From assembly GCF_011045215.1 (NCBI RefSeq), contig NZ_CP049201.1: DNA of 64,000 nt; one strand, given 5' to 3'. The translations under genes and the position numbers were made by a program. Source of the DNA: Escherichia coli (GTDB lineage Bacteria; Pseudomonadota; Gammaproteobacteria; Enterobacterales; Enterobacteriaceae). Below the pieces are notes generated by a model. The model did no database searches and had not been told where the DNA came from. It saw nothing but the letters and a program-made list of their open reading frames with translations. Shown one piece after another: positions 13,353-40,233 of this stretch; position 1 is the first letter of the stretch, and each line of letters begins with the position of its first letter.

Positions 13353-13571
13353 CTATTTACGATAGTATCTTCGCATTTGTAGATAGAGTTGTAACCAAAT
13401 CCCAGCACCTCCCCATAAGCCAACTACTGCGCCAATTATTCCGTATTTTACATACACCTCAGAAGGTATTGGTTCCCGAGCTATAAACCAGATACTAACC
13501 ACTATTCCAATAGAGCAAGTAGCTATAGATATAAGTAACAACTTAATAAGAAGTAGTAGATGTTTTTTCAT
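13353..13571 (-). CDS. cdiI: CdiI immunity protein (72 aa, two TM helices)
   Basis: Start overlaps the cdiA stop (ATGA at 13568-13571); hydrophobic two-helix protein. Confidence 0.7.
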   Translation of the reverse strand: MKKHLLLLIKLLLISIATCSIGIVVSIWFIAREPIPSEVYVKYGIIGAVVGLWGGAGIWLQLYLQMRRYYRK

Positions 13572-16500
13572 TTTTTGTCTCCATCAACTTCTTTTTGCGT
13601 TGCGCTGCTTGCACCTTCTGATACGAATGAACCAACAAATCCACCAAATGTTCCTGGTATAGAACTCATTTGGCCGCCTTGATACATACCGTATCCGATA
13701 GACTTTTCCGAATATTGCAGTGAATATTTACTGGCGTCCATTCCCAGTTGATTTTTGATGTATTGAGCTTCTAACTTATTAGTAATTGAAGCGCCAATGT
13801 TATAGCCAAGGCCTGTACCAGCCATGCTACCCACTACTGATGCGGTACTGTCCTGGCCTTCAATCTGGCTGCTCATGTAAGCGCTACCGGCACCCAACAA
13901 CTGGTTAGCGTAATATCCTTTCCCGGCTGTACCTACACCAGTCAAGCCTGACATCATGAAACTGAGATAATCGAACTTATCACCGATATTTCCCGTACCA
14001 ATTTGTACCGCACCATTAGCCCCATAGCTCAGCCCGGCACTAACAAATTTTTCCGTCAGCGTGGCTGATGACGTTAACAACGAACCCGCTCCGGCAACCG
14101 TACCCCAGTAATTTTCCGGTTCCCCGAAGAAAGCCAGAGCCCTGTCACCCTTCGACGTATTACTGTTCAGATAATTCAGGTCGTAGCTGTTGCCTTCAGC
14201 CACGTAATCCTTCACCTCCTGATTAGTCAGTGAACCATACAGCCAGCTAGGTCGGCCCGCCGCGCTGAGCCCGCCCTCAATATTCCATTTATCTTCCCCG
14301 GACAGAGCCGTCAGAGGATCTGCGGCCACATCAATGTGTAATTTCTGTCGGTTCTCTGCGCTTAATACAGCATATTTATTCTGAATATCGCCGCAGTCTC
14401 CACCCGCTTTACGACAGGCCGTCATTTCTCTGTCAAAAGCATGCGCCTCGTCGTAGCTGAGGTAGTTATTCTCAACTGTTGTCTTACCTGACTGTGCGCC
14501 GGCTACCGCTGAAGCCCCCGAGTCGCCCACCAGACCACCGGCCAGGCCGGCAGCAACCGTTGCCAGCGTGGAGACCGTCTGTTTCTCTGTCTCACTCAGT
14601 TCACTCACCGGTTTATCGTACATCTGTGTGGCTATCATTCCCACCACCTCGCCGGTGGCTGCACCTGCAGCACCGGCAAGAGCATTATTTCCCTGTGCCA
14701 GAGACAGTGCGGCATTCACCACGGCATGGGCGGCCACATTTGCAGCCTTATTCACCTCACCTGTAACCGGGTCTGTGGTCATGGTTTTCACCACTTCAGC
14801 CAGATACGGTGCTGCACCACCTGCCAGGGCTGCACTCAGATTACCGCCGGCCAGCCCCTGTACTGCTGCCGTTGCGGCCTGTATCGCCTGCTGGTATTTG
14901 CCTCCCGTTCCAAAACCGGAGGCCGCCATACCGTTATTGTAAGCCCGCTGTGCCACATCCTGTTCCGTGAACGGTTTTCCTGCTGCCTCAAGCTCTGCAC
15001 GGGCCTGATTCAGTGCTGCCGGGTCCCGTTTCGCTTTCTCACCGGCTATCTGTCCTTCCGTTCTGGCAATATCTGCCACCTGGTTACCAATCTCACCAAT
15101 GAGTTGCGCCTGCTGCAACCGCTGCTGCTCTTTTTCCCTGTCAAAGATGGGGGACAGCGTCTGGTTTGCATGCGCAACGTCACGGTTCAGGTCTGCCACA
15201 TCCTGTTTCTGGCTCTGTGTATCCCGGATAGTGATATTCCCGGCAGACACAGCCGACTGCGTGGTACTGTCCGCATGGCCTTCATGATTTGCACCGACCA
15301 GCAGATTGTTTGCCATGTTCCCCAGGAAATTTCCGGCAACACTGCCACCGGTACTGAGCCCTGCACTCTGATGTTCCGTTTTAAAGTCAGCCCGGTTTTC
15401 AGTGTCACTGAAGCCCAGTGTGCCGGTATCCAGCCTGTTTTTATCTGCCGTTGCCGTGGACGCAATCACCGCACCGTTCAGTTGTGTATGCTGTCCGGTC
15501 GTGACATCAAACCCGCCCCTGCCGGCAAAAATCCCTGTCTGCTCCTGCACACTGTCGTGGTTACTGTGCATTTTATCCCGGCTGAGGCTCACACTCGCCG
15601 AACCGCTCATGGACCCGAAAGTGAAGCTGCCTCCGGCGCTGGCATTCTGCTGTTTACTGTCATAATGGTCACTGTCCTGCTCACTGGTCAGTGTCAGATG
15701 GCGACCGGCATCCACTTTCACGGTTTCTCCACTGGCCTGCGCCCCGGTAAGTGTGGTGTCACGCCCACTGATAATGGTCAGCTGTTTTCCCGCATCCACC
15801 GTGGTTTCTGTATGGGTGGTACCGTTGCCTTTTTCACTGCCCTTACCCTGGTTTGCGCTGGCTGACAGACTGAAACCAGGCCCTCCGGGCCCCACACCGA
15901 TACCGACACCCACGCTGCCACCACTGGATGTGTTCTTTCCTTCCAGCTTTGACGTGTTTTCTGCTGATACCAGATTCACGTCACGGTTTGCCTGCAGCAG
16001 AACGTTGTTCCCGGCCTTTATCTGACCGCCCTGTATCGTCAGGTCACCATCCACGCCCTTCACGCCGGAGCCGGTGGCCTGAATACTGAGGTTATTACCT
16101 GCGGTCAGTGTACTGCCCTTCGCCACCGTCTGCTCTGACTGCTGTTCTGATTTCGAAGACTGGCTGCCGTAAGAGAGGCTGATACCCACGGTATTGTTAT
16201 TCTCTTTCTGGTTGCCCTGTGCTTCTGCCAGTCGTCCGGCCTGCACGGCCTGAGCCCCCGAGAGCGCGGCCTTCACCCCCTGCAGGGCTTCAAGCCGGCT
16301 GTTTCCGGCAGATTTCGCCGCCTGTACGGTCTCCACCGTCGTGTTCAGGGCGCTGCCCGCTGTGCCGGACAGGGCAAGCGTCAGACCGGAGGTTTTCTGC
16401 TCCACCGTATGTGTCTGCACATGCCGGTCAGTGGCGGCGGTAATGCTGACCTCCTTACCACTGAGTGCCATGTCCCTGCCGGCAATCAGGTCAGAGCCGT

Positions 16501-19500
16501 TGACGGTCAACCGGTTACCTGCCTGAAGGGAAACATCACCGTGAACACTCCCCACCGTGCTGCCTTTCTGCGTGGTGTCTGTTGCGGTGTCCGTGACCTT
16601 CAGACTCTGGCTGCCCACGCTGAATCCCACACCTCCGGAGCTCATCAGTCCGGATTTTTTCTCCTGTTTCAGGTGTGTTTCACGGTTGCTTTCTGTCAGC
16701 GTTCCGATACTCAGGTTATTTCCGGCAGCCAGGGAGACACGGTTATCCCCGGCCACACTGCTGCCCGTGACGTTCAGATTATGTCCGGCACCGATACTGA
16801 CCGTATCCCCGTTCAGTTCACTGCCCGTCATGGTCCGGCGGTCAGTGACATCATGCGTGGTAGTGGTGGTTTTCGATAACATCCCGCTGTTGCCGGTCAC
16901 TTTATGGTATTCATCCAGCGAGCGGGTATTCTGTGCACCGGTCAGCGTCACGTCATGACCCGCCATCAGGGCCAGGCCTTTCTGAGCTGACAGCAATGCC
17001 GCCTGTGACGTCATATCCCGTCCGGCGGTCAGCGTGACATCACCGTTACCGGCAAGCGTGCTGCCCGTACTCTGTGTGACGCCCTGCGACAGACGATTAT
17101 TTTTATCCCAGATAATATTGTCCTGCGCGGATGTGGTCACTGTGGAGAATGTCATATCCCTGCCGGCACTGAGTTGCGTCAGACTGTCCTTACCCTGGTT
17201 CACCACCGTTGCTGCCGTCAGGTTTATGTCCCGTCCGGCCTGCAGCACCAGTCTGCCCTGGTCATTCTGCACATATACGCCAGCCACACTGTCGATGCTG
17301 GTACGTTCAAAATGGTTCTGTCCGGCGTCACTCTGTGCCGTACGGGTGGTGGTGGTCAGACTGATATCCCGTCCGGCCATCGCCAGCAGGCTGTCCGTGG
17401 CCTGCAGCAGCCCGCCGGTACTGTTAATATCCGTCCGGGCCGTCAGGCTGACATTTGCTCCCTGAATGGTGCCGGCCTGGTTGTGAATGTTTTCTGCACT
17501 GAGCTGCACGGCCTGCTTCCCGGCCAGTTTACCGCTGTTAAACAGGTCACCATCCAGCTTCATCACCATGTCCCTGCCGGCAATCAGCGCACCGGCACTG
17601 TTCACATCACCGGGTTTTACACGGGCATACACCTGAGGTACCTGAACCGTCTGCGTGCTGCCGTCCGGCAGTGTCACCGTGGTGTTAACCAGCCAGACAA
17701 TATCACCGGTCAGTAACGCCATCTGCTCAGCAGTCAGCGCCACACCTGGTGTCAGGTTGTATTGCTTACCAAATGCAATACCCGCATCCATTAACGCCTT
17801 AAACTGCTCTTCATCATTACTGTATCCGTCCAGGTACCGTTGCCCGGTCAGAGCGACAACCTGCTCACGAATCAGACGCTGTTCGTAAAAACCATCCCCC
17901 AGGCGTTTGAGCATGTTATCCCCGTTCTGAGAAAACGCCTTCTGCATGTAATCACTGCCCAGCCACGTCTTCTGGTTCGTAAAACGCGGGTCCGTTTCAA
18001 CCAGATATGGCACATTCACTGCCGGATTTGTTTTAAACAGGCTGCTGTCCGGCAGACGGGTATCCGGCCCGGCAACATGGATACTGCCCTGAGGTGCGCT
18101 GACTTCAAACTGCTGCCCCGGCAACAGAATGACCGGTTCACCGGCTGACACCACCGGGCGAAGCGGTATCCGGTCAGTAACGGCTACTGTCGCATCCACA
18201 TTTCCGGTCAGTCCTGTCTGTACATCCGTTCCCTGTGGCTTCAGGGGAGAAAGCGTGACCTGGCTGCCCTGAACCTGTCCGTGGCTGGTGAGCTCTCCCG
18301 GCTTCAGCGTGATGGTCTGAATGACGGGGGGCGGCTCGTAAGGGGAAATTCTTTCCCCCTGCCTGTCATTTTTATTTTTTCTTTTTATCCGGTAATAATA
18401 TGTGGATGTCCCTTTATCAGTAACATGGCGCTCTCCGCTGACACTGACGTTTTCCACATCACCGGCCTGCATATCCAGCAGACCACCTGCAACCACCTGG
18501 CTCTTGTCATTAAGCAGTTTGTCTGCCACAACCGTCATGCCGGCACCGGACAGTATTTTCCCCGGGTCGGAGTCTTTTACCCGGGTTTCCTCCACGGTAC
18601 GGGTGTATTCATATTTTGTGAACCGGTCGTTGTTATGTCCGGTATCATCCGGCGTGTTCAGGTTCAGCAGTCCATCAGAGGAGTTGTTATCAATGAACAC
18701 CCCCTCATCTTTTGCATTCCAGCGGACATCTGACCCGCGATGCTGATACTCAGTCACCTTTTCCGTGGAAACCACCACGCGCTCCGTGGTGAAATGGTCA
18801 TTGACGTTATTGATTTGTCCGGCACTCAGTACCAGATATCCGGCGGCTTCAATAGTGGCACTGTGATTATTCAGTACACCGGTTTTACCTGTGGCGGTGC
18901 CATTCGCATCCAGCGTGCCACCGATATGCATATCACCTGCACTGTAAATCAGGCTGTGCGTCCGGTTATTCAGGGTCTGTACCCCCAAGTCCACACGCTC
19001 ACGCCCGGCCAGCGTCGCCGCCACGCCATTTTCTTCCAGATTATTAAATGTGGCAGCACTGACACCAACAGCATCGCCGTAGATTCGCCCGGTACCGGAA
19101 TTCGTCAGGGTGTTCGCCTGAAGATGCGTATATTTCCCGTCAATCAGCCCACGGTTCAGCAGTGTGTCCGTCACGTTAAGCCAGGTCTGCCCGGCACTGA
19201 TTTCACCTTTCCCGGTGTTTTCAAGGCGGATGCTGTTCAGGTCAAGTCGGCTGCCTGCCAGCAGGCTGCCGGTATTAGAGACATCGCCATTAACGGAAAG
19301 CGTAAGGTTTCCGTTCGCAATAGTCTGACCACTGTTACTGAACGCTGTGTTACTTTTCAGCGTTATATCGCCCGGGGAAAGCAGTTTCCCGTCACCACCG
19401 AGCTGACCGGCATCCACAGAGACTGACTGCCCGGCCTTAACCACACCGTCACGGTTCGAAAACGCCAGCTGACGGCCACTGACAGACAATGTCGCGCCGG

Positions 19501-22500
19501 AAGAGAGCACGCCATCATTATTACTGAGCGTCCTGTCTGCCATAACCGTAAGCGCCCTGTCTGCCAGAATACTGCCCTCCTGGTTATCAAGGTCCTGCGT
19601 CGTGATGTGTATTGTCTGCGCTTCCAGCCCCTGGCCGGTATTCTGCGTGTGGCGATTGATAAACTGCAGGGCGTTCAGCGTAATGGCAGAACCACTGCGA
19701 ATCAGACCAGAGACGTTGTCCACAACGCCCCGTACACTGTCGAACAGAATGTCGCCCACAGACTGTATCTGTCCGTGGCTGTTCTGCAGGCCTCCCGTAT
19801 GCAGACGGAGTTCACCTTCACTGACCAGCCGGCCACCCTCACGGTTATCCAGCGAGGTGGTGCTCAGGTCAGCTGTCGTTTTCGCCCCCACGGTCCCGCC
19901 CCGGTTATCCATTGCTCCGGTACTGACAGTCAGTTCCTGCAGGCTGTTCAGCGTACCCCCTCTGTTATCCAGCGTCCGGCCTGCGCTATTAATGCTGATG
20001 CCTTTCCCCTGAATAAGACCGGACTGATTGTTCAGCGCCAGACTGTTCCGGCCGGGCAGACCGGTCGCCACAATCTGACCATTCGCCACCACCTGACCGG
20101 ATGTATTGTTAACCACGCCTGCAGTCAGGGACAGCGCATCTCCCGACAAAAGCACACCGGCAGTGCTGTCCAGTGTGCCGGCATTCAGCGTCATCGGGCC
20201 CTGACTGATAACCCCGCCCCGGTCACCACTGTTACGGTTGCTCAGTGTGTCAGCACGGAGATTCAGTGTGGCACCGCTCTGTATCAGACCACCTGCATCA
20301 TTGCTGATATCCGTCGAGGAAAGGGTCAGTGACTGCTGTGCCACCAGTCTGCCGCCCTGATTATCAGAGCGGGTGACATCCAGCCTGCTGTTACCGTTGC
20401 TGACCACCGTCCCCTGCTGATTTTCCAGCACATTCAGGTGCGCATTCAGGTCCCCGCCGGCGGCAAGCGTCCCTTCCTGATTACTGACATCGCCACCACT
20501 CAGCAACATATCCGTCCCGGCCTTCAGTGCGCCTTTCTGGTTCATCAGCGTACCTGACGATATCTGTAATGACGCCTGACTCCCCAGCACGCCCTGACGG
20601 TTATCGAGCGTTCCGGCGTTCAGGGTCATATCCTTCTGACCCGCCATAAATCCCTGCTGGTTATTCAGCATACCGGCCCGTACTGTCAGGGTACCGGCGC
20701 TGCTGATACCACCCCGTGTTTTCGTGTTCCGGTTACTGAGAACCCCGTCCTGTACATCCAGCGTCATGTCACTGCCGGACTGAATCAGACCATCATCAGA
20801 GACCAGTTCGCTGCCTGACACAGACAGCGTTTTCTGTGAAAGCAGTCTGCCGGACGTATTATCCAGCGCACCATCCAGCGTCACGGACAGCCCGTCAGAC
20901 ACCACCGTACCCTGGTGGTTATTCAGACTCCCTGCCGAAATATCCAGCCTGCCGGCGGACTCCATTCGTCCCTCAGTATTGCTGACAGCCTGCTGTGTTT
21001 TTATCCTGCCCGTTCCGGCAGCAGCTGAAATCAGTCCGTTGTCGTTATTCAGTGCCTGTGTATTAATCAGGATGTCACGGCTGGCAATCAGACTTCCCTG
21101 CTGGTTATCCACGGCGCCGGTTGTCCTCACCTGCAGACTACCTGACTGCGCCGCCTGCACTTTCCCCCTGCGATTATCAAGGCTCAGTGCATCCAGGCGC
21201 ACCGCGCCATTTGCCGCAAGCAGCCCTTCCCGGTTATCCACGCTTCCCGGCAGACTCAGCGAAAAATCCCCTGTTCCCGTCTGAATCAGACTGCCTTTAC
21301 GATTTGACAGGCTCTGTGCCGATATCTGCAGTGTGTCGGCATTTACCGTGCCACCATTATTGCTGAACTGCCCGGCAGTCCGGGCGGAAAGCGTACCGGC
21401 ACTCAGTTGTGCATTCTGTGTGGACAGATTTCCGCTGCCTGCATCCAGCTCAGTATGTTGTCCCTGTATCCGGCTGTTGCTTAAATCCAGCCCCTGCCCC
21501 TTCAGTTGCATGTCCCCACCGGACAGAACCTGTCCGTGTGCCGCCAGTTCGCCGGTGGTACTGACAGTCAGGTTGCCCGCTGCCGCCAGACGTCCGTCAT
21601 CTTTCACCCCGGCGGCCAGCAGACTCCGCTCACCGCCGGTCAGACGCGCTGTCTGAATCCGGGTGTTGCGGCGTGATGCCACAGAGCCTGTATGGGTGAA
21701 TGCACCATCACTCTGTATCTGCGTATCCTGCCCCGCATAAACAGAACCACTGTTATGCAGCTCCCGGGTTGTCGCCAGATGCACATCCGTTTTCGCACTG
21801 ATACTGCCACTGTTTTCAATACGTCCGTCAGCCGTCAGGGTAACCGCCCCTGCCTGCGCACCAATATGACCGGCGTTACGAACCCCCACCCCCGTTTCCG
21901 TACCGACAAGGCGAATTTTTCCGGCATACATTCCACCAAGGCTGGACACATCCAGCGCCACCTGTGGCTGCGAAGAGGCATCAGCGGCTTTTTTCTCAGT
22001 CTGCCCGTGTGCAATATCCACATTGTTACGTCCGGTGGTCACTTTCAGGTCCTGCGCCCAGATACCCGCATTAATCTTCACAGACCGGGCAATGATATCG
22101 GTATAATCCGTGCGCGAGGCATCCATCCCTTTGCCCGTAATCTGAATCTCACCACGTTCAACACTGAATCCGGTCAGACTGCCGTTTTTCATCTGAGGCT
22201 GCCCCGTGGTCAGCGTGGCCCGGTTCGCATTAATAAAACCGCACCCGTCGCAACTGATGCCGGCCGGGTTCGCAATCACCACCTGCGCCTTTTTCCCGGC
22301 AACCTCAACAAAACCGTTCAACTGGCTGGGATTGCGACTGTTCACTTCATTAAGAATGATTCGGGCCTCTCCCTTCGCCAGCCACGGGTTACCGGCAACC
22401 ATGCCGCCCAGTTGGGTCTGCACATTTTTATGCGAGTTATTCAGAATGACACCCTGATGACTGACATCAAACTGACTGTAAGTATTGTGCGATACCCCAC

Positions 22501-22804
22501 CTGCAGAAGGTGTCTGGATATTGACCTGAGGAATGCCGCTGGCTGTCTGCGTAATCGTGGGCTGCTGATGCCCCGGTGCGCCATGGTCTGCGACAATGCC
22601 TGCAGCACTGACAGAATGCACCATCCCCGAGGCCAGCCACAGGGAGAATGCAAGCGATGTGACACGGCAGATACGTTGCCTGCGTGGATATCCTGTACGG
22701 GAGGAGGGTGATGCACCGGCGCGACCGGAACGGGCAATATCTGCCACCACCATCAGCATTCCCCGGGCTTTGTTAAAAATAATGCGGTAACAATTTTTGT
22801 TCAT
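13568..22804 (-). CDS. cdiA: CdiA contact-dependent inhibition toxin / TpsA exoprotein (3078 aa)
   Basis: Extended signal peptide MNKNCYRIIFNKARGMLMVVADIARS, TPS domain, long filamentous-haemagglutinin repeat region, VENN motif at 14465-14476 followed by a 298-aa Gly-rich C-terminal toxin domain. Confidence 0.95.
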   Translation of the reverse strand: MNKNCYRIIFNKARGMLMVVADIARSGRAGASPSSRTGYPRRQRICRVTSLAFSLWLASGMVHSVSAAGIVADHGAPGHQQPTITQTASGIPQVNIQTPSAGGVSHNTYSQFDVSHQGVILNNSHKNVQTQLGGMVAGNPWLAKGEARIILNEVNSRNPSQLNGFVEVAGKKAQVVIANPAGISCDGCGFINANRATLTTGQPQMKNGSLTGFSVERGEIQITGKGMDASRTDYTDIIARSVKINAGIWAQDLKVTTGRNNVDIAHGQTEKKAADASSQPQVALDVSSLGGMYAGKIRLVGTETGVGVRNAGHIGAQAGAVTLTADGRIENSGSISAKTDVHLATTRELHNSGSVYAGQDTQIQSDGAFTHTGSVASRRNTRIQTARLTGGERSLLAAGVKDDGRLAAAGNLTVSTTGELAAHGQVLSGGDMQLKGQGLDLSNSRIQGQHTELDAGSGNLSTQNAQLSAGTLSARTAGQFSNNGGTVNADTLQISAQSLSNRKGSLIQTGTGDFSLSLPGSVDNREGLLAANGAVRLDALSLDNRRGKVQAAQSGSLQVRTTGAVDNQQGSLIASRDILINTQALNNDNGLISAAAGTGRIKTQQAVSNTEGRMESAGRLDISAGSLNNHQGTVVSDGLSVTLDGALDNTSGRLLSQKTLSVSGSELVSDDGLIQSGSDMTLDVQDGVLSNRNTKTRGGISSAGTLTVRAGMLNNQQGFMAGQKDMTLNAGTLDNRQGVLGSQASLQISSGTLMNQKGALKAGTDMLLSGGDVSNQEGTLAAGGDLNAHLNVLENQQGTVVSNGNSRLDVTRSDNQGGRLVAQQSLTLSSTDISNDAGGLIQSGATLNLRADTLSNRNSGDRGGVISQGPMTLNAGTLDSTAGVLLSGDALSLTAGVVNNTSGQVVANGQIVATGLPGRNSLALNNQSGLIQGKGISINSAGRTLDNRGGTLNSLQELTVSTGAMDNRGGTVGAKTTADLSTTSLDNREGGRLVSEGELRLHTGGLQNSHGQIQSVGDILFDSVRGVVDNVSGLIRSGSAITLNALQFINRHTQNTGQGLEAQTIHITTQDLDNQEGSILADRALTVMADRTLSNNDGVLSSGATLSVSGRQLAFSNRDGVVKAGQSVSVDAGQLGGDGKLLSPGDITLKSNTAFSNSGQTIANGNLTLSVNGDVSNTGSLLAGSRLDLNSIRLENTGKGEISAGQTWLNVTDTLLNRGLIDGKYTHLQANTLTNSGTGRIYGDAVGVSAATFNNLEENGVAATLAGRERVDLGVQTLNNRTHSLIYSAGDMHIGGTLDANGTATGKTGVLNNHSATIEAAGYLVLSAGQINNVNDHFTTERVVVSTEKVTEYQHRGSDVRWNAKDEGVFIDNNSSDGLLNLNTPDDTGHNNDRFTKYEYTRTVEETRVKDSDPGKILSGAGMTVVADKLLNDKSQVVAGGLLDMQAGDVENVSVSGERHVTDKGTSTYYYRIKRKNKNDRQGERISPYEPPPVIQTITLKPGELTSHGQVQGSQVTLSPLKPQGTDVQTGLTGNVDATVAVTDRIPLRPVVSAGEPVILLPGQQFEVSAPQGSIHVAGPDTRLPDSSLFKTNPAVNVPYLVETDPRFTNQKTWLGSDYMQKAFSQNGDNMLKRLGDGFYEQRLIREQVVALTGQRYLDGYSNDEEQFKALMDAGIAFGKQYNLTPGVALTAEQMALLTGDIVWLVNTTVTLPDGSTQTVQVPQVYARVKPGDVNSAGALIAGRDMVMKLDGDLFNSGKLAGKQAVQLSAENIHNQAGTIQGANVSLTARTDINSTGGLLQATDSLLAMAGRDISLTTTTRTAQSDAGQNHFERTSIDSVAGVYVQNDQGRLVLQAGRDINLTAATVVNQGKDSLTQLSAGRDMTFSTVTTSAQDNIIWDKNNRLSQGVTQSTGSTLAGNGDVTLTAGRDMTSQAALLSAQKGLALMAGHDVTLTGAQNTRSLDEYHKVTGNSGMLSKTTTTTHDVTDRRTMTGSELNGDTVSIGAGHNLNVTGSSVAGDNRVSLAAGNNLSIGTLTESNRETHLKQEKKSGLMSSGGVGFSVGSQSLKVTDTATDTTQKGSTVGSVHGDVSLQAGNRLTVNGSDLIAGRDMALSGKEVSITAATDRHVQTHTVEQKTSGLTLALSGTAGSALNTTVETVQAAKSAGNSRLEALQGVKAALSGAQAVQAGRLAEAQGNQKENNNTVGISLSYGSQSSKSEQQSEQTVAKGSTLTAGNNLSIQATGSGVKGVDGDLTIQGGQIKAGNNVLLQANRDVNLVSAENTSKLEGKNTSSGGSVGVGIGVGPGGPGFSLSASANQGKGSEKGNGTTHTETTVDAGKQLTIISGRDTTLTGAQASGETVKVDAGRHLTLTSEQDSDHYDSKQQNASAGGSFTFGSMSGSASVSLSRDKMHSNHDSVQEQTGIFAGRGGFDVTTGQHTQLNGAVIASTATADKNRLDTGTLGFSDTENRADFKTEHQSAGLSTGGSVAGNFLGNMANNLLVGANHEGHADSTTQSAVSAGNITIRDTQSQKQDVADLNRDVAHANQTLSPIFDREKEQQRLQQAQLIGEIGNQVADIARTEGQIAGEKAKRDPAALNQARAELEAAGKPFTEQDVAQRAYNNGMAASGFGTGGKYQQAIQAATAAVQGLAGGNLSAALAGGAAPYLAEVVKTMTTDPVTGEVNKAANVAAHAVVNAALSLAQGNNALAGAAGAATGEVVGMIATQMYDKPVSELSETEKQTVSTLATVAAGLAGGLVGDSGASAVAGAQSGKTTVENNYLSYDEAHAFDREMTACRKAGGDCGDIQNKYAVLSAENRQKLHIDVAADPLTALSGEDKWNIEGGLSAAGRPSWLYGSLTNQEVKDYVAEGNSYDLNYLNSNTSKGDRALAFFGEPENYWGTVAGAGSLLTSSATLTEKFVSAGLSYGANGAVQIGTGNIGDKFDYLSFMMSGLTGVGTAGKGYYANQLLGAGSAYMSSQIEGQDSTASVVGSMAGTGLGYNIGASITNKLEAQYIKNQLGMDASKYSLQYSEKSIGYGMYQGGQMSSIPGTFGGFVGSFVSEGASSATQKEVDGDKK

Positions 22805-22819
22805 TCTGATAAACCTGAC

Positions 22820-23347
22820 TTATCTCTCCGGCACATCCACAGCAAGCGGGTGCTGCACACGCCACTGGCGCGCCTCTTCACGACTGACCTGTGCACCCCG
22901 GAAATTCATCACCCGCAACCCGGTCTGCTGCCCACGGTGGTACAGCGAACGCCAGCACAGACGGGGAAAAATATCCTGCCGGACAAGACGACTCATATCC
23001 GGGGTATGTCCAAAAGGGGCAATCCAGTCACAGACCCACATCCGGTCGCCGCTGTTCCAGTCCGACTGAGGCATGAGAATTGCCGGCTGCGTAAGATAAC
23101 GCGCCTCTGCCTCCGGGCTGAGCCAGGCCTGGCTCATGAAGAAAACCGGTCGCCCCTGCTCTGTTGCCACCACATACTGTCGGTGCTTAATCACCGGCAG
23201 CAGCAGGTCCGGCAGGGTATGCAGTGGCGCATCACGATGCAGGGGGGAGTGCATCCACAACCAGACGGCCGCCCCCAGAACTTCCGCCTCATTGACCGGC
23301 TCACCGGAATACAGGGGACTCAGAACGTCATATTTCCCGTTACGCAT
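22820..23347 (-). CDS. cdiC: CdiC, HlyC-family toxin-activating lysine acyltransferase
   Basis: 175 aa; VWLWMHSPLHR and SGDRMWVCDWIAPFGH match HlyC/CyaC acyltransferase motifs; sits between cdiB and cdiA. Confidence 0.85.
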   Translation of the reverse strand: MRNGKYDVLSPLYSGEPVNEAEVLGAAVWLWMHSPLHRDAPLHTLPDLLLPVIKHRQYVVATEQGRPVFFMSQAWLSPEAEARYLTQPAILMPQSDWNSGDRMWVCDWIAPFGHTPDMSRLVRQDIFPRLCWRSLYHRGQQTGLRVMNFRGAQVSREEARQWRVQHPLAVDVPER

Positions 23348-23356
23348 GAAATTTTC

Positions 23357-25096
23357 TCAGAAATCCCGGAACAGATTAAAACCGGCTGTCACATCACTCG
23401 TCATAAAACCCGCCGGTTTTGAAAACGGACGACCGATGAAAACGTCATAATCCGTACTGAACAGTTGCCCCCTCAGCCCCACAACACCACCGGCCAGATG
23501 ACGTCCCACCAGGTATTCACTGCCGGCTCCCCCCACCTCGCCGTAATCCATTCCCAGATATAACGCCTGCTCCGGCAGTGGCGTACGCCAGGCCAGGTCG
23601 TTGCGGATATACCAGCCGTTACTGGCATTCAGCGTTCGCTCCCCGTCAAAACCACGAACCGTCCAGCGGTTACCGATGGCAAACTGTTCCTGTGGGGTCA
23701 GCGGGGTATTGCTCAGCTGGCGCTGATACCGGAAGGAATAACTGAAGGGCTGCCCTGCAAGGGTAAAGGGCAGATTAAAGGATGCATTCAACTGCAGGAT
23801 CTTACTGAGCGCCGTTGCCTCACCGAACGTTTCTTCCGGCGCCGGCTGTGCACCAAACCAGCGGGTTCCCCGTTGCCAGCTGACACCAGCATCCAGTGTG
23901 GCCTGAGAAATATAATGACGGTGCTGCAGCCCAAGTCGCCAGGCCGCTGTCTGCCGGCGCTGCACCTGGATTTCCGTATCATTAATGTAGTTACGCGACC
24001 TGCGGGCCTGAACATCGTAGGTCAGCACCGTTTTCTGCGTCCCGTTACGGTGCAGTACCCGGCTCAGCTGCATACCCAGATTCTGACTCTCGCCACTGTA
24101 CTGGTAATCCTCAACCGCACCAGCTACCGTCTGATGGTAATCGTAATCACTGGCGGTGACGGAAAACTGCCAGTAGCCGAAAGGCACAGAGTAATGGGCC
24201 GTGTAGTTTTTACTGCCCTTACCCCCGTAATGTGGAAAATTACGGGTGGCAGAAACATACAGCAGGTCACTCAGGGAAAAAGGATTATCCAGAGAAAATG
24301 TTATACCACCGAGATAACGCCCTGTGCTGCGGGTACCTGAATCATCAAGCGAAAACCCCAGTCGCCAGTATTTGTCCTGTTTGCGGGTAATAAGAATGTC
24401 ACTTTCCCCTGGCTGCTCACCGGGTACAATTTCCATATCAGCCTGCACACCCGGCAGTCGTTGCATATTCTCCAGCCCCTGCTCAATGTCCCGTAAATCC
24501 AGCAGAGAACCTTCGTGTGCCGGGAATGAGGAATACAACTGAATATAGTCATCACTGTCCGGTGTCAGACGCACATGTCGCACAACACCGGGAATAACAA
24601 CCAGCCGGAGGATACCGCTTTTTAAATCCTGCGAAGGTGCCAGAACACGGGTGGTGACATAACCATGATCGACCAGACGGTTCTGCAATGTACTCATCAG
24701 CAGATTAATTCCTTTCGCCCCCAGGCAATGCCCGACCGCCCCGTTGGCGATTTTTTGTAAAGGCAGCCAGTGTGGTAACGCATCAGCCCCCTCCAGTTCC
24801 GTCTGTTTAATCTGAAAACAGGGCGTTTCAACAGGAAAATTAATCTTACGGGCAAAAGAGCCAGGTGCAGAAAGGCGAACATCAGGGGCTGAAGGCGTCA
24901 GTTGTTGCTCAAGGGCTTCCTGACGCTGCTGCTGAATGATAAATGCATTATCTCCGCTACGCCGGACATCCGCGGCCTGAAGAGATAAAGGCGATAATAA
25001 AACAGACATCAGTGTCAGTGACAGCAAGGACGGACAGCGCCGGAATACGCTTTGTTCCTCAGCCCTCTCGTTCCTGCAACATAATTTTCCAGTCAA
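23357..25096 (-). CDS. cdiB: CdiB, TpsB/ShlB-family outer-membrane transporter
   Basis: 579 aa, signal peptide, POTRA plus beta-barrel, C-terminal aromatic residue; 9 bp upstream of cdiC. Confidence 0.9.
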
Positions 25097-28410: not shown

Positions 28411-28959
28411 TCACTGAGCTGTAATCAATGTACAGCGCTGTACCGGACGATGGATAATGGCGGTCACAACCGGTAACCCCAGAGACAATGCGACTGTTTT
28501 TAACGCAACATACTGGCCGGATGTATCACCCCGGGCAACCCGAAAACACTTTTCCACCCGGCATTGTCCGCCAGCGCTTATCACCTGCCAGGTCTGTTGT
28601 AGTAAATCCACCAGTTGTGAACATTCTTCATCAACTGTCACACTGGCTCGCGGATGGCAAATGCTCGTCTGGCTGAGCAGCAACAGGCATCGCATTGTTG
28701 CTCCTCCATGTTGTTCCCGCAACCAGCGTAATACCAGCGGCGATGATGGACTGGCCGTGTGATTACGCTCAGTAATACGTTCGTGCACCTGTCGATAAAA
28801 GGAAGTACAGAATGTCTGAACCTGTTGTCCGTTGATGTTTCCTTCAGCCGAATGGAGCGTGAAGTGGACTGCCAGCAGACGCGGCCAGTGGTCCACCGCC
28901 TGCTGAACAAAACGCCGGATGTCTCCCGGCTCTGAAAGTAATACTTCGGTTATTTGCAC
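28411..28959 (-). CDS. hypothetical protein (182 aa)
   Basis: ORF convergent with the ProQ-like gene. Confidence 0.4.
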   Translation of the reverse strand: MQITEVLLSEPGDIRRFVQQAVDHWPRLLAVHFTLHSAEGNINGQQVQTFCTSFYRQVHERITERNHTASPSSPLVLRWLREQHGGATMRCLLLLSQTSICHPRASVTVDEECSQLVDLLQQTWQVISAGGQCRVEKCFRVARGDTSGQYVALKTVALSLGLPVVTAIIHRPVQRCTLITAQ

Positions 28960-29225
28960 GAAATGTTCCTTTTCGAATCCTGTTGAATTTTACTGATCCG
29001 GTACAGACACGCAGGAAAACACGCCTGCACCGGTGTAATGCCAGTTACAAACAATAAGAACGGAAGGACGAATCAGTCAGGAAATGATGACAAACCGTTC
29101 ACTGACCGGAGGATACCACCAGGAAGGTTAACGGGAGAGTAACCGGTACCAGGGACAGGGCCGGGTTCCACAATACCAGCGCCGGCATTTCGCACATTGC
29201 CAGCGTACCGGCATCCCAACACGTT

Positions 29226-29459
29226 TCATGCTGCTGACCCTCGTGATTCTTCGATTCGCTGCTGCATCCACTGCTCCACTTCGCTTTTGTACCAGCGGCT
29301 GCTGCGACCCAGTTTGATGGGTTTAGGAAAATGGCCTTCACTGATCAGCCTGTAAAACCATTTATCGGTCATGCCGGTGAAACTGGTGATGTAGTTCATG
29401 TCGATCAGGGGATCGTCGGCACGCAGCAACACGCTGTCGTGGCTTATTGTGGTCAACAT
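29226..29459 (-). CDS. alpA: AlpA-family phage/island transcriptional regulator
   Basis: ITSFTGMTDKWFYRLISEGHFPKPIKLGRSSRWYKSEVEQWM matches the AlpA HTH core. Confidence 0.7.
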   Translation of the reverse strand: MLTTISHDSVLLRADDPLIDMNYITSFTGMTDKWFYRLISEGHFPKPIKLGRSSRWYKSEVEQWMQQRIEESRGSAA

Positions 29460-29527: not shown

Positions 29528-30133
29528 TCAGAACGGCCCTGCAGATCCGGGATACCCGGGATTACCGGCGAGGCAACGGGCTTCCGGATCGCACACATCA
29601 CGACGAGCGCGGGCGAAATCACTGAACGCCCAGATAAGGTCTTTAAACAGGGCTTCGCAGTCCGGTGACCGGCGATCCAGTACCACATCCCGGGTGATCT
29701 GCTTCTGGTACGGCTTTGCTTCACCTGGTGACGCGAAGCCCAGCACGTTACTCCAGGCATCCAGAATCAACCGATCCAGCTCAGGGCCATCGAAATACTC
29801 CTGTCTGACGCACAGCACCACGTGGTATTCCGGTTTTTCAGGATGACGGGTCAGGAGCCAGCAGAGGTCACGTCCGGGTGTTGCATTCATCAGCGCACTG
29901 ACGGTTTCGATAAAATCCATACCAAACCAGGTCTTTCTGCTGCTGAAGGTATTGTCATATTCACACGGCAGACGAAGCAGGATCCGCCGTATCCGGGAGC
30001 CGGACTGCTCACGCAGCGCACGCTCAAGGACACCGATAACTTTGCTCTGATAAGATGGCCAGAAAGGTGCCAGGCTATAGTCGAAATAAGGGATAGTATT
30101 CATAAGATATGCTCCGTTATGCGCAGCCCACAA
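29528..30133 (-). CDS. Inovirus Gp2-like / YfjJ-YagK family protein (putative HUH Rep-like)
   Basis: 201 aa; RILLRLPCEYDN and EYHVVLCV (HxH-like) motifs. Confidence 0.45.
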   Translation of the reverse strand: MWAAHNGAYLMNTIPYFDYSLAPFWPSYQSKVIGVLERALREQSGSRIRRILLRLPCEYDNTFSSRKTWFGMDFIETVSALMNATPGRDLCWLLTRHPEKPEYHVVLCVRQEYFDGPELDRLILDAWSNVLGFASPGEAKPYQKQITRDVVLDRRSPDCEALFKDLIWAFSDFARARRDVCDPEARCLAGNPGYPGSAGPF

Positions 30134-30360: not shown

Positions 30361-30927
30361 TCAGAAGTGAGGCTTACGAGGACGCCCTGCAGCAGGTCGT
30401 TCAGGAACTTCATTGCAGCCGTAGGCGCACAGCCCGTCTTTTTGTTCTTCTTTCGCCAGATAATGCAGGACACCGCGAATATTATCGATGCTCCCGGGAT
30501 CGTTATGACGCACGGGGATGTTGATGTTGTATGTATAATGCGGCTGATATGTACAACGGTGCACCGAACCGCTGTTATGCGTAATAGACCGCCAGCATTC
30601 CGTAATCCGCTCCGCAAAGGGATATACTTTTTTAACCCTCTGACGATCGATCCAGAAAACCGCATGCGCATGAAAACCATGATCAACCGTCCATTCAATC
30701 ACCCAGAAGAAGCCAACCATATTTTCAAATTGTTCCGCCTGCTCCAGCAGCATACGTAACTGTAATTCAAGCCAACGATGATCAGGTTGTAAGAAATCAG
30801 GCGTATCTTTCCTGTAGAAGAAATCCATGCGTAAGGCCCGCAGGCAGGAATAGCGTGCTATCATTTGATTGATGTGATTGTCAAATAAAGCGGTAAAAAA
30901 CCAGTTTGGTGTGTAAGATTTAGGCAT
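30361..30927 (-). CDS. Inovirus Gp2-like / YfjJ-YagK family protein, second paralogue
   Basis: 188 aa; LRMDFFYRKD and HGFHAHAVFW (HUH-like) motifs. Confidence 0.45.
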   Translation of the reverse strand: MPKSYTPNWFFTALFDNHINQMIARYSCLRALRMDFFYRKDTPDFLQPDHRWLELQLRMLLEQAEQFENMVGFFWVIEWTVDHGFHAHAVFWIDRQRVKKVYPFAERITECWRSITHNSGSVHRCTYQPHYTYNINIPVRHNDPGSIDNIRGVLHYLAKEEQKDGLCAYGCNEVPERPAAGRPRKPHF

Positions 30928-32516
30928 GCTGATGACTCCTGAAAGTTAATGACGTTTTAAGTGCTGTAAGCGAATTAATGCTTTCGCTCATAATCAGATC
31001 TAAAACGGTAATAACTTACAGACGGTATTTATCAGGCATGCTGTAACAGAATGGATACGTCGGTTATTAACGACACGCAACGTTGTGCTGAAGGGAATGG
31101 GTCATCTGATGGCATTGACTAAAGAAATGAGATAAACGAGGAGTAAAAAAATACAGATTCAATAAAACACAATGAAACACTGCAAAATACGCAATAAACC
31201 CCCACTACCAGGAGATTAAGAAACATATTACGACCAATAACATCATAAACTACAAACTTGCTCTCAGTGAGTCTGAAAAAACGTGTACAAGGCCAACACA
31301 TATCTGTAACCTGATAAAATCATACACTCTCATTTAATCTGTTAAAAACAACTCATGTTCAAGATATGAACGTTAACGGGTACACGGTACCAGAATGAAA
31401 CATACCATTGATGGATAATTTTCATTTTGTTTAACATAAAAGATAATCAGAAACGAACAGACATAATCAGGAATTCACCCTGTTAATTTCATTGTTTATC
31501 CTGCGCTGTTAAACATGACGGAATCATAGACACCTTATCAAAGAGTAAACATTCAGTTAATCAGTGATGACAGAAGAATTGATGTTCACCAGAATAGTTA
31601 AAACACTTCAGATAAACAATTATTGTTAAACAATGATAACGCATGACGGACAAGATTAAAATCAATTACTGTCTCACTGAACATGAGAACAGATGAATAT
31701 CTGTCAGTAGAATGGTAGAGAATACACCTGAATATCATATGAGTTACAATCGTCATGATTGAGATATGGATGGAGAGGATATTGTTATAATAGTGACAGT
31801 GAAGACTGGAGAAGGACATGAGTGAGTATAACTGGATGAAAATAATAGTAATGGAATGTGTAAAGATAGAGAGGAGAGATGAATGACAAAGATGGATAGA
31901 AAATAAAGAGACAGATATTAATTATAGTAATAAACCTAAATTAAAATTATCCATATCTGATGAGTAAAAATAAGAAATCCTACGTCCTGAATACAAGCCT
32001 AAGAAAAACATTCTCTTACAGAAAAAGATCAAATCGTTTTTCTTCAATCTCCCATTGAAACCTGAACAGCATCTCTTGCCAGTAACAGACTGATAACCAT
32101 TCATTATTCATAATAGAGACCAACATCGTCATATACGCCGGCACTCATCACGACAAGAATCAAAAAAAGTTATATATAAAAACTCACATAATATGGTTAT
32201 ATGATTAGCTTCAGACATGTTAAAAATAGCATTTCTGTTCACTTTCTTTTTATAAAAAACGAAAGCCATTCTTCCACCAGTGCGCACACTCCTGTATTCA
32301 ACCAACTCTGACAGCAGGTCATTATGAAAACAAAATCAAATCACATATATAGTGCATGTGCTGCTACTGTTGCTACCGTAGCGATTTTTTCAGAGAAATT
32401 TTCGTTCATGCCCCATAGATGGTGAACATTTGCACAGATGCGGGATATGCAAAACGCCTTACCACCAACCTTCGAATGAAGGTTGATTTTTTTCGTTTTA
32501 TCTGTGTTAGTTTATT

Positions 32517-36671: not shown

Positions 36672-37412
36672 TCACCTGCCATCCAGCAAACGCCCCGGCC
36701 CACGACTGCAACCATAATTACGTTGCCCGGAACCGTCATGCTGCTTCGTCTCATATTTCACGAGATAACTGGCTCTGTTCCGAGCTTTCTGCATCGCTTC
36801 CACATCACCACGCTTGATCCAGAGAACAGCGGCTTCACCAGACTTTTTGTCTGAAGCCTTCCTGGTTTCAGAACATTCACCAGGCACAGGCGTATCATCG
36901 GAAGAAGGGCGAGCATCAGATGATGTCGGTTTACGGAAAGGCGTTGACAGCGTCCGCCTGGAAAAATGAACCAGTCCATTACCCTGCCAAGGCTCAAGAT
37001 GCAGAGCACTGCACCATGCCAGTTGGATCAGCGTCGCCAGCGAAGAAGGAACGGTGAAATCCCCTGGCGAGCACCAGGTATCTTTGTTGAGCAGTAATAT
37101 CACGTGATAATGTTTCCTGCCTTTTTCCTTGCCAAACTCCCGACACCAGAAATAACGCAGAGTGGTTGCGCGCACACGCTTGTTGGCACGTCGTTTTTTC
37201 CGCTGGTAAGCCTGAATTTTTGCTTTCAGGGATTCGAAAAAACGAGAAATCACCGCTGAATCTAAATCGGTATCCATGATGGTGGCAGGCATATACTCAG
37301 GAAAACGTAAATCCACCCGAATTAACGAGACGGCACGGTGTTGCGCCAGGGCACTGTTGAGAATGCTTTCAAAACGGGATAACCAGTAAGCATTGTGTAT
37401 TGGTTGATTCAT
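36672..37412 (-). CDS. Inovirus Gp2-like / YfjJ-YagK family protein, third paralogue
   Basis: 246 aa; SLIRVDLRFPEY and HYHVILLLNKD (HUH-like). Confidence 0.45.
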   Translation of the reverse strand: MNQPIHNAYWLSRFESILNSALAQHRAVSLIRVDLRFPEYMPATIMDTDLDSAVISRFFESLKAKIQAYQRKKRRANKRVRATTLRYFWCREFGKEKGRKHYHVILLLNKDTWCSPGDFTVPSSLATLIQLAWCSALHLEPWQGNGLVHFSRRTLSTPFRKPTSSDARPSSDDTPVPGECSETRKASDKKSGEAAVLWIKRGDVEAMQKARNRASYLVKYETKQHDGSGQRNYGCSRGPGRLLDGR

Positions 37413-38289
37413 GATGAGAGATCTCCGTTGATTTGGATTGACTTCACATCATTAATCACTGTGGTAAAACTTTACGGCATCCCGCCATTGAGCAACGCCA
37501 ATGGCTCCTGATTAAAACAGAATGAATCCCCCACGAAGAAAAGATAAACCTACACGCAGAGTGAAACACACAACAACGGCATAAATGGTTTTTAAAAACT
37601 ACAAAGCCTGAAGGGAAACGGATCAACAAAACGTGCAAACAAAACGTCAGAAACGCAATCAGAACGCTTTCTGGCTCTGTAAATCAACAACAACACCAAA
37701 ACCTACAGCTTAACCACACAACTCAATCACAGAGCCGAATAGCGCGCTTAAAACCTGTTTACAGATAACCCCGCCACAAGAACAAAAACCACCAATATCA
37801 GAATCGATTTTCTTATCCTGAAAACGTTACTTTTCAACACACCATAAAAACGATTAACCATCAATAACGTAAATCTCATCTGAATCAAAACACCAGAACC
37901 AATCATCACGCTTTTCCTGAAAAGAGCCTTATGATGAAGATAATCACCTTGCGCTGAGAAAAAACACCAGGGCCAGTTAATCATCTCATCAATCTCATTG
38001 CTACAAAATCATCTATAAAACCATTTAACAAAATCATCGTAAGCACACAGTAAATCACGCCAGGTTATCTCAGCCGGATTTGCGTTTTACATAAAAACAC
38101 TTGTCTCAGGTTAACGACTAAAAACACGAAAACTCATAAAAGGTTAAATGTAACATCAGTAAAATCGAATAGCATATTGACTGCTTAAACAGGACAGGGA
38201 GTTTTGTAGTGACGTTAACTGATTTTAGTTAGCGTAAAGATTTACTAAACTGGATGTGTTTCAGACAAAGCAATGTGTATAACAATGCT

Positions 38290-38415
38290 TAATGAAAACA
38301 CTTGTAGAATTGTTTATGAAAACACGTGCATGTCTGGTAAAACACTTAGTAGAAAATACGTGTATAACACTTACTGAAATGCTTAGTAAAAATACTGAGT
38401 AAAATACGTGTATAT
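38290..38415. repeat. Degenerate direct-repeat (iteron-like) array
   Basis: Five or more copies of GAAAA(C/T)AC(T/G)T(G/A)(T/C)A spaced about 15-25 bp apart (38294, 38317, 38337, 38352, 38400) in an ORF-free AT-rich region. Confidence 0.4.
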
Positions 38416-39378
38416 AGTATCATACCGACATTCTCAACATCTTCAGACATCCATGCAGACTGAGTGTTGATTTCAGTTTTTCACGGCCAGCATGGATCTT
38501 TACTGGTCAAAAAACAGACAGATTTACTCTGGAATTATTTTTCCAGGCCTCCCTGAAAAGACCATCCGGAGCACCCCGTTCGTCAGCTTCCATGTTGTCT
38601 TTTACCCCCGGAAAGTGATCGCATTTTCCAGCCAGAATGACAGCCATACTGATTATGACGTCTCTCCGGCCCCTTCACATATAACATTCATGTCAGTCAT
38701 TTCTACTGTCTCACTCACCGAAATTCTCCATGCCGGATGAAGCAATTGTTCTGAACTGAGCAGAAGCATAACAGCACACACAAGGAAACGACTGTGCCAT
38801 AGATCCCGGAATCAGGATCTTAATGTCAGGAAAACAGTGACGACCGGGGATAACTAACAACAACCTGAGTACAGAAGAAAGCTTTCCCGCGCACGCCACC
38901 ATCTTATGTAAGAGGATATGATGCCCCCACCTCAGAAGAACCGTCTCCGGGAGAACTTCACTGCATCAAAAATCCTTTTGCTGAGTTCTCATTCCCCATC
39001 ATGGCAGCTACAGACATGCCCTGACAGAGCGTATGCGCATTGAGAGAAATAACCATAAATGATGAGAAGACACTCTATATGACGACAGCATGTTGAGGTA
39101 TAAAAAATATTCATCTAAATATTTTAAGAATATTTTTTATTGCAAATTACATGAAATAACATGATGTCAATATAATTTTGTCAAATGCGTGAGATTAATC
39201 ACATTGTAATTTTATGTATTTTTATGTAAATAAGAGAAAATGATCCATGAGCGTTATTGCATTTTTTCTGATGTATGGATAAAAGGGGGATTCAGGCAAA
39301 ATTTACTGACAGAGGAGATGATAAGAGGGGGTTAAAGAGTTCTATAGAGTTGGTTGTGCATTTATACCCAGGGAGTTC

Positions 39379-40233
39379 ATGTCTGTGCATTCACCAGATG
39401 AATCTGCTCATGTTTTTAGTAGGATGGAATATGAATATCACCGACATAACGATAAATTACGTTCTGTTAATGCTGATAATGCAGGCAGAGACGTTGTTCC
39501 GGAGTGGGTGCAAAAAGACCCTGTAGCCGCATTCTGGGTATGGATGTTTATATATCATGTTCCTGACAGTATTGTCCGACTCTCAGGTGAGCGATATGCA
39601 GATTACGGAACTTCCTGTCTGTATTCCAGACTGTTCGCTGCTGAAGCACTTCCGGTTGAGCATCAGGCAAGGATTAGTGTGACGAGAAAATGGCTACAGG
39701 AACTTAAAAGGCTAACCGGAACAGAAAATGTATCTGACTTCTTGTATGCCGTTCATTTTTTATGGTCATATGCTGAAAAAGTGAACCCCATGACATGGCT
39801 TGGTTCCCGGCGGATACATATCAAATGGGCATGGGCGTATCTGCAGAAACATTGCACTGACGAAGAACGTCACTGTCCTGATATTTCAGAATTTAAAGCT
39901 TCAGGGGAGTCCCGTCTGTTCATAATAGCTTATGTGCGCTGTGTCTTCATGAAAATCTATTCTGTCGGTACTGAACCTCAAAAGTTAAAAGAATTAGTTC
40001 ATCAGCAGAATGATTTTCTCAGGCGCATGAAGTGCTCATACCAGAAAATGTTCCGGTATGAGAAAACCGATTCCCGGGTACAGATAAGTGCCCTGATTTC
40101 TCCGGAAGCCAGGAATGCACTCCGGAAAATGGCAAAAAAGAATAATCTGACTCAGGCTGAAATACTGGATAAACTCATCTTATCAGCTGATCGTCTGTTT
40201 ATGCAGAAAACAACCGGGGATTATTCCCGTTAA
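39379..40233 (+). CDS. hypothetical protein (284 aa) with a possible C-terminal ribbon-helix-helix-like segment
   Basis: ORF only; C-terminal EARNALRKMAKKNNLTQAEILDKLI. Confidence 0.4.
   Translation: MSVHSPDESAHVFSRMEYEYHRHNDKLRSVNADNAGRDVVPEWVQKDPVAAFWVWMFIYHVPDSIVRLSGERYADYGTSCLYSRLFAAEALPVEHQARISVTRKWLQELKRLTGTENVSDFLYAVHFLWSYAEKVNPMTWLGSRRIHIKWAWAYLQKHCTDEERHCPDISEFKASGESRLFIIAYVRCVFMKIYSVGTEPQKLKELVHQQNDFLRRMKCSYQKMFRYEKTDSRVQISALISPEARNALRKMAKKNNLTQAEILDKLILSADRLFMQKTTGDYSR

Follow-up and report, generated by a model that had tools for sequence, protein, structure and literature searches.

What is the function of a cluster of short direct repeats that lies in a long intergenic region of an Escherichia coli island, upstream of a gene for a Rep-like protein? 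The window analyzed here is a stretch of 64,000 nucleotides from contig NZ_CP049201.1. The repeat array (38282-38410, + strand) sits in a divergent intergenic region of 1966 bp, between a gene of the Gp2 family on the left (- strand) and a 284-aa ORF on the right. PGAP annotation places nothing on the array, and a literature search returned no publication that assigns a function to the Gp2 family or to the array region.

The repeat array and its conserved surroundings

The array is composed of nine units with up to two mismatches to the 10-nt core AAAAYACKTR, all on the + strand. They start at 38282, 38295, 38319, 38339, 38353, 38364, 38376, 38389 and 38401, with successive spacings of 13, 24, 20, 14, 11, 12, 13 and 12 nt, 11-14 bp being the commonest. 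Five exact matches to the core lie in 38295-38410; the remaining three to four units are degenerate. The sequence-only reading had reported at least five copies of a longer motif, GAAAA(C/T)AC(T/G)T(G/A)(T/C)A. Its location was right, but this 13-mer as written matches exactly only three times (38294, 38318 and 38352), and it is the 10-nt core that occurs five times.

Across the 64-kb window, both strands included, AAAAYACKTR is found seven times against 1.47 expected, a number reached in none of 100 shuffles. Under a local first-order Markov model, five exact copies in 130 bp were never obtained in 2000 simulations (mean 0.03-0.06 copies), and neither were the nine relaxed copies, for which the maximum was eight. 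The enrichment is therefore not an effect of local composition, and the repeats are more frequent than expected in AT-rich DNA. In GC content, the array (31-35%) is below the wider region (~40%).

An isolated copy of the core, AAAACACTTG, is present upstream at 38094-38103 (+ strand), with one or two changes in homologues. The first unit has an inverted-repeat setting (38281-38316) with the flanks AACAATGCT/AGAATTGTT: the unit and its inverted copy (AAACACTT-gtag-AAGTGTTT) match perfectly in copies L010 and L015 and with one mismatch in the window, and the pair is also perfect in L014, where the spacer reads ctac instead of gtag. A DnaA box, TGTGTATAA, was considered at 38275; the match is perfect, but it is absent as a conserved feature in the homologues. 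Furthermore, no winged-helix initiator of the Rep_3, pi or RepA type, as would accompany an iteron origin of a theta plasmid, was found among the scanned flanking ORFs.

The array belongs to a conserved non-coding module of 1.13 kb (37413-38543) that adjoins the Gp2 start codon. This module was detected in 1877 of 5426 complete E. coli genomes (~35%), at 3307 places and up to eight times per genome. Identity among the copies is roughly 75-92%, and almost every place is without annotation. Plasmid matches are limited to three records. The module has no match in the phage DNA collection searched, which may not include P4, and the sole match of a protein search for phage relatives is an unverified contig of 4.5 kb.

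For alignment, the window was combined with 18 retrieved homologous island copies. The Gp2 start codon adjoins the module in 18/18 of them, with an insertion intervening in two; the sub-core 37875-38542 is kept in both copies where the insertion parts the module from Gp2. The array is present in 19/19 E. coli copies examined, which confirms its conservation in homologous islands, and is always located between the anchors ATGTGTA and TATAGT. Its copy number varies from 4 to 12, and the indels are whole units.

Between the Gp2 gene and the array, a strand-asymmetric leader (37500-38100) is A+C-rich on the + strand and conserved across homologues, with an AT skew up to +0.49 and a GC skew down to -0.50. 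By its composition, a Gp2-sense RNA from this leader would be G/U-rich and C-poor and hence probably a poor substrate for Rho; a plus-strand RNA would have the opposite composition. Closer to the array, the block CGTAAAGATTTACTAAACTG (38233-38252) is near-invariant (97% column conservation), and part of it is tandemly duplicated in L001, L012 and L013. The region 37420-39370 had been described as lacking ORFs of 60 aa or more. This is not strictly correct: five mechanical ORFs of 60-83 aa occur there, at 37456-37638, 37748-37984 and 38711-38902 (- strand) and at 38492-38740 and 39275-39526 (+ strand). None is conserved as an ORF: the homologues differ by indels whose lengths are not divisible by three.

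The CORE and END motifs and the cargo junction

The last repeat is directly abutted by a 17-nt motif, CORE (TATAGTATCATACCGAC, 38413-38429, + strand), which contains a -10-like hexamer. In E. coli, this hexamer reads TATAGT in all copies except L017, where it is TATAAT; across lineages it is TATAGT, TATAAT or TATATT, and position 5 alone varies. Since the variation is confined to this position, a sigma-70 -10 element fits better than a nick site. A conserved CCGACA follows TATAGT at a fixed distance of 7 nt. No -35 element was found for the hexamer on the + strand. On the - strand, CORE lies within a possible leftward promoter, TTGAGA-N17-TATACA (38410-38437). A consensus promoter scan called neither of these signals at CORE.

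In K-12, the homologous region is the yagK-yagL spacer, to which the RNA polymerase sigma-70 holoenzyme was bound in vitro in genomic SELEX; the same study predicted a yagK promoter, TTTAGA-N16-TATAAT, and found H-NS bound at this spacer (PMC3946193). Weaker sigma-32 and sigma-E signals and RcdA clones have also been reported there. The predicted promoter overlaps the K-12 CORE. Given this coincidence and the hexamer variation at position 5 only, it is very likely that CORE belongs to the promoter of the Gp2 gene, and this promoter may be active in both directions. In the leftward direction, the repeats would be placed just downstream of the start site, which is the position of the iterons in geminivirus Rep promoters. 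A CRESS-type nonanucleotide in CORE was also considered: some lineages do carry TATATTAC, but the bases at the supposed cleavage point are not constant (TAC, TAT, TAA), and the -10 hexamer was judged the better reading.

Outward from Gp2, the order is leader, array, CORE, an AT-rich spacer of ~50-95 nt, a second motif named END, and variable cargo. END (ACTCTGGAATTATTT, 38526-38540, + strand) starts 113 nt after the start of CORE. Directly behind it is a homology junction (38541-38545), and many BLAST matches end at 38541-38543. The right flanks of the 19 E. coli copies form three unrelated classes, beginning 2-5 nt after END, and the mean pairwise identity drops across the junction from 0.87 to 0.70, with 38% of the pairs below 0.6. 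Because the homology of the E. coli islands stops 2-5 nt after END, this motif marks the junction between backbone and cargo. Past it, the window has the 284-aa ORF as cargo, while other copies have ORFs of ~376-407 aa on the minus strand.

Two other readings of END were rejected. A small protein encoded across it (E. coli frame ...QIYSGIIF) meets a stop immediately upstream in L027, L030 and L032 and is broken in L015 and L016, and an intrinsic terminator would have stems of just 4-5 bp, which are unconserved. No conserved hairpin was found around CORE or END, and the folding z-scores of the spacer (-2.2 to +1.8) show no excess. Strong inverted repeats are seen 30-60 nt after END in L030, as a stem of 14-15 bp (CGCGATTAGTTGCGA...TCGCAACTATCGCG), and in L032, as nested TGCGATT/AATCGCA repeats; they have no E. 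coli equivalent.

In four lineages, END contains the octamer TGATATTA, which spans the gene A cleavage site in the phiX174 record (CAACTTG^ATATTAATAAC, with ^ at the cut; origin at 4306) and recalls the nick site of the phiX174/pC194 type (CTTG^ATA). The E. coli END has TGGAATTA instead, and the bases after the putative cut differ by lineage (TG^ATA, TG^GAA, TG^CAA, TT^AAA). The likeness is only a lead, because of the different E. coli sequence and because the next two bases vary. The probability that such an AT-rich 8-mer would match by chance is estimated at a few per cent. Moreover, the phiX174 protein A has two tyrosines, whereas Gp2 has one catalytic Tyr motif (YxxK).

Both motifs recur far outside E. 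coli. Distant loci were collected by protein searches and from IMG/VR, and come from Brenneria, Providencia, Morganellaceae and eight IMG/VR contigs; a scan of one genome per species with the Gp2 protein gave only two loci. The Gp2 homologues of these loci are only 35-42% identical, and their intergenic regions are unalignable with those of E. coli. CORE is present in 9 of the 11 loci, once per locus and always upstream of and divergent from Gp2, in the forms TATATTACTATACCGAC, TATAATACTATACCAAC, TATAATAACTATCCGAC, TATATTACTATATCCGAC and close variants. END is present in 8 of the 11 (ACTCTGATATTAGTT and variants), in the same orientation and 66-113 nt past CORE, start to start. In block shuffles of these loci, 0.05 CORE and 0.27 END matches are expected in total, the regular expressions being derived partly from the same sequences on which they were counted. 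Where the loci reach far enough, Gp2 is divergent from an arm with GTPase, antirestriction and DUF932 genes, with an AlpA gene coming directly behind it.

Several of these lineages have repeats of their own. Providencia has AAACACATAG three times on the Gp2 side of CORE, with the core AAACAC in common with E. coli. On the same side, L032 carries a 22-nt unit three to four times, and half of CORE is duplicated in L030. In the Brenneria locus L021 (2760-2870), four direct repeats AAAATGTGT, resembling the E. coli unit AAAATACGTGT, are found directly before the first right-arm gene, ~500 nt from CORE.

K-12 itself carries the element in the yagK-yagL spacer of CP4-6 (L035 7040-7215; 293,040-293,215 of the record). 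CORE (TATAATACCTATCCAAC) and END (ACTCTGCAATTAGCT) are 69 nt apart there, and toward yagK they are accompanied by a perfect 10-bp inverted repeat, TACTCTTACT/AGTAAGAGTA. Degenerate forms of both motifs are recognizable upstream of yfjJ.

The Gp2 protein and the surrounding island

The Gp2 gene (36672-37412, - strand) codes for a Rep-like HUH endonuclease of 246 aa, of the YagK/YfjJ ("inovirus Gp2") family (Pfam PF11726, E 7e-37). The HUH motif reads HYHVILLL and the catalytic Tyr motif SYLVKYETK; the HUH, Glu, Tyr and Lys residues are invariant among the family sequences compared. The family comprises 1432 clusters at 50% identity. A confident structural model has a Rep-type nuclease fold, and its nearest structural neighbors are HUH Rep nucleases, among them several that bind direct repeats. 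The matches are to the nuclease domains of MVM and B19 NS1 (7.7 and 7.0), the HUH domain of Helraiser (7.4), AAV5 Rep (6.4) and the origin-binding domain of RepB of pMV158 on its direct repeats (6.2). Foldseek against the PDB returns the same families, weakly, and no solved structure was found for any sequence relative of Gp2.

The E. coli protein has a Ser/Pro/Asp-rich insertion of ~45 aa before the catalytic-Tyr helix; the members of ~195 aa in other genera are without it. Several family members in the databases are frameshifted pseudogenes. According to a preprint (bioRxiv 10.1101/364505), E. coli Nissle gained copies of an integrase and of a Gp2 family gene in the course of gut passage. 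Array type and Gp2 sequence do not co-vary within E. coli: L001 and L004 have identical Gp2 proteins and different arrays, and L017 has a divergent array with an ordinary Gp2. Between genera, the repeats differ as the Gp2 proteins differ.

A second, paralogous ORF-poor module of ~1 kb (30928-31975), also conserved, is located upstream of a weak Gp2-like gene (30361-30927, - strand). It contains RAAAYAC four times at 31148-31190, and this mini-array falls in one of only three RAAAYAC-enriched 500-bp bins of the window. AAAACACTTC and the palindrome AACAATtATTGTT are found near 31600-31630, together with variable purine-rich repeats. TATAGTAATAAACC, with a TATAGT box, is at ~31923, ~1 kb from the start of the Gp2-like gene and thus as far away as in the first module, and the homology between islands stops abruptly after ATCTGATGAGTAAAAATAA. 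Two further ORFs on the - strand, 28411-28959 and 29528-30133, give weak matches to the Gp2 profile (hmmsearch E 4.5e-5 and 5.5e-4). To judge by these sequences, the island may hold up to four diverged HUH-like paralogues. The ORF at 29099-29341 has no Pfam AlpA match.

On the right, the 284-aa ORF (39379-40233) resembles RHH/CopB-type repressors weakly at its C-terminus (residues ~225-270; NF010256, E 2.6e-4). Upstream of it, a perfect 13-bp inverted repeat, ATAAAAAATATTC/GAATATTTTTTAT, is found at 39100-39140 in DNA of 24% GC, and may be the own operator of this ORF. Farther right are a 335-aa ORF (- strand), a YfjP/YeeP-like GTPase, DUF932, RadC and CbeA/CbtA, a gene set that is the backbone of CP4-57-type islands. 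Also encoded in the window are a DUF3987 helicase-like protein, a member of the ProQ/FinO family and a two-partner secretion system. The locus of the latter (13568-25096) has an exoprotein ORF of 3078 aa, a ShlB/FhaC-type transporter and a HlyC-type acyltransferase; a Tn5-type transposase, two helicase/nuclease genes and a T6SS VasL/ImpA-like ORF are situated farther left.

Possible roles of the array

Among the functions initially put forward for the repeats, that of binding sites of a regulatory or Rep-like protein appears best supported by the sequence, since the array is conserved, varies by whole units, is abutted by CORE and is linked to a HUH gene. In this general form, in which the Gp2 promoter has a functional array of protein-binding sites, we consider the reading likely. 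The more specific proposal, that the array is a cis-acting iteron/operator set of a Gp2 promoter-origin region and is probably bound by the HUH protein, stands in our view at about an even chance. The array with its conservation and variable copy number, CORE and END, the linkage to the gene, the HUH fold and the cargo junction are observations; the binding protein, the direction of the promoter and any nicking are our inferences. A Gp2-like protein would bind the phased repeats through its origin-binding/nuclease domain, in the manner of RepB of pMV158, AAV Rep and geminivirus Rep at their direct repeats, and thereby regulate the adjacent promoter. Bound at the repeats, it would be positioned to nick a nearby conserved site, END being the better candidate and CORE the alternative, and such a nick would be the starting point from which the excised island replicates as a rolling circle, is transferred or recombines. 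The idea of a vestigial origin does not agree with a module kept at 75-92% identity in 1877/5426 genomes, nor with the survival of CORE and END across genera.

Comparison with known HUH-Rep origins supports a Gp2-bound array in several respects. At the origins of pMV158, geminiviruses, circoviruses and AAV, as here, a HUH gene adjoins phased direct repeats, and the fold of these Reps matches the Gp2 model. The origin of pMV158 combines proximal and distal direct repeats for RepB with a nic locus, those of geminiviruses and circoviruses have iterons and a conserved nonanucleotide, and that of AAV a Rep binding element and trs. An adjacent gene with the metal-binding HUH and catalytic Tyr motifs and at least three direct repeats near that gene, conserved in relatives, are both found at this locus. 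HUH Rep origins classically pair a conserved core with variable repeats, and a conserved short motif with lineage-differing repeats is also seen here in several lineages. The layout is that of geminiviruses, with the repeats between the Rep gene and the promoter box and a conserved site beyond. There are, however, differences. The element is chromosomal and part of an integrative island of the tRNA type. Hairpin loops harbor many of the HUH nick sites, whereas no stem-loop is conserved at the candidate nick site here, and the array is 0.9-1 kb from the E. coli gene. Instead of one nonanucleotide, two conserved motifs are present ~100 nt apart. Gp2 is ~195-246 aa long and has no helicase domain, and replication from this element is a prediction.

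The oriT of mobilizable elements offers a second comparison, as the candidate nick region is likewise located between a divergent HUH gene and an arm with antirestriction, DUF932 and RadC genes, which we take to resemble plasmid leading-region genes. Unlike oriT relaxases, Gp2 is Rep-like and belongs to no MOB family, and the analysis identified no gene for a coupling protein, a T4SS or an accessory relaxosome component. A literature check on leading regions yielded nothing of use. A bolder extension of the Gp2 proposal regards END as the cleavage/joining site of a domesticated HUH endonuclease by which cargo is exchanged at one constant junction. From its position on the iterons, Gp2 would nick END and capture or swap cassettes (defence genes, toxins, enzymes) by rolling-circle or strand-transfer chemistry. 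This would be similar to gene capture by ISCR/IS91 or Helitron elements, but anchored inside an integrative island. We regard this extension as improbable.

The binder could instead be another island regulator. According to this alternative, which we consider possible but rather unlikely, the array is the operator set of an AlpA/Vis-type winged-helix, small HTH or WYL protein that controls the divergent promoters separating the Gp2-AlpA arm from the GTPase-antirestriction arm, a role played by Cox, Apl and Vis in P2, 186 and P4, and the HUH protein is uninvolved. Phased direct repeats are bound by Xis, Cox and Apl proteins and by activators of the PhoB type, and can take the place of a -35 element; the units here are spaced by 11-14 bp, about one helical turn as in the Cox/Apl/Vis/Xis operators of P2, 186 and P4-like elements, and abut a -10-like hexamer without a -35. 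The AlpA and DUF3987 alpha-like proteins are P4-like traits of the island, and in distant relatives the intergenic region is a divergent control region with AlpA next after Gp2. Repeats placed directly before the first right-arm gene in Brenneria (AAAATGTGT, four times) are also in line with such an operator, and the array types that change without Gp2 in E. coli favor it. Against this alternative, the array of the window is linked to Gp2 and not to AlpA: the AlpA-like gene is ~8 kb away, behind cargo and the second module, and each module is paired with its own Gp2-like gene. K-12 keeps CORE and END by yagK and yfjJ though no right arm follows, and the 284-aa RHH-like ORF, considered and rejected as a binder, is missing from many loci that retain the array. 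The repeats are presumably also unrelated to cox boxes.

A role in RNA had been suggested as well, in the form of a promoter-operator region of a small RNA. The conserved -10-like hexamer after the last repeat agrees with this suggestion, but the accompanying features of a small RNA are missing. Two versions were considered, a GU-rich motif in the 5' leader of the Gp2 mRNA and the upstream region of a plus-strand small RNA of ~120 nt, running from CORE to the T-run after END. CCGACA at its fixed distance from TATAGT, T-rich tracts after END in several examined lineages, the C-poor Gp2-sense leader RNA with its presumed resistance to Rho and the ProQ/FinO-family gene of the island would all suit an RNA. 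So would an 8-bp inverted repeat, ATCCATGC/GCATGGAT (38449-38497, + strand), with its arms at 38449-56 and 38490-97, 33 nt apart: over 11 variants, 91% of cells are paired and two pairs are changed on both sides (modest covariation), and the A-U to U-G changes favor a plus-strand RNA. However, Rfam gave nothing meaningful, either for the whole window at gathering thresholds or for the region at E up to 1. The folding z-score (MFE) is ~-1 on both strands, and the RNAalifold consensus reaches only -5 kcal/mol. No terminator was called in 38282-38545 on either strand, which leaves the T-run without a preceding terminator hairpin. No RNA structure is shared across lineages, and the spacer between CORE and END is unstructured in Providencia, L028 and L032. 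A variation of 4-12 units would be unusual for a structured RNA. The region thus has neither the terminator nor the conserved structure or family membership of a bacterial small RNA, and a structured small RNA is unlikely, since there is no Rfam match, folding and consensus energy are weak and the spacer is unstructured. The small RNA PapR was considered and dropped, as its publication gives no usable location. An action of the repeats in RNA, in either version, seems improbable to us.

The repeats might also have no function and be a by-product of slippage in horizontally acquired, H-NS-bound, AT-rich DNA that hitch-hikes with the island. The variable unit number, the AT-rich composition of the region and the H-NS reported at the homologous K-12 spacer (PMC3946193) are compatible with this. 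Against it, the same two conserved anchors enclose the array in 19/19 copies, and the motif core is kept although the overall identity is 75-92%. A related AAACAC core is found in Providencia at the same place relative to CORE, and a related mini-array in the second module. A mere by-product is therefore very unlikely.

The Gp2 family lies in cryptic prophage-like islands, two of them in E. coli K-12, together with virulence, toxin-antitoxin and anti-phage genes. It now has a defined cis-element with exact coordinates, made of the repeat array, CORE and END, and the yagK copy makes this element testable in a standard laboratory strain. If the HUH protein acts here, this would explain the replication, movement or cargo exchange of supposedly defective islands, and also why their cargo differs exactly at one junction. 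If cargo exchange in particular is true, CP4-57-type islands would be HUH-driven platforms for cargo shuffling, and the two units of this island would be two exchangeable cargo bays.
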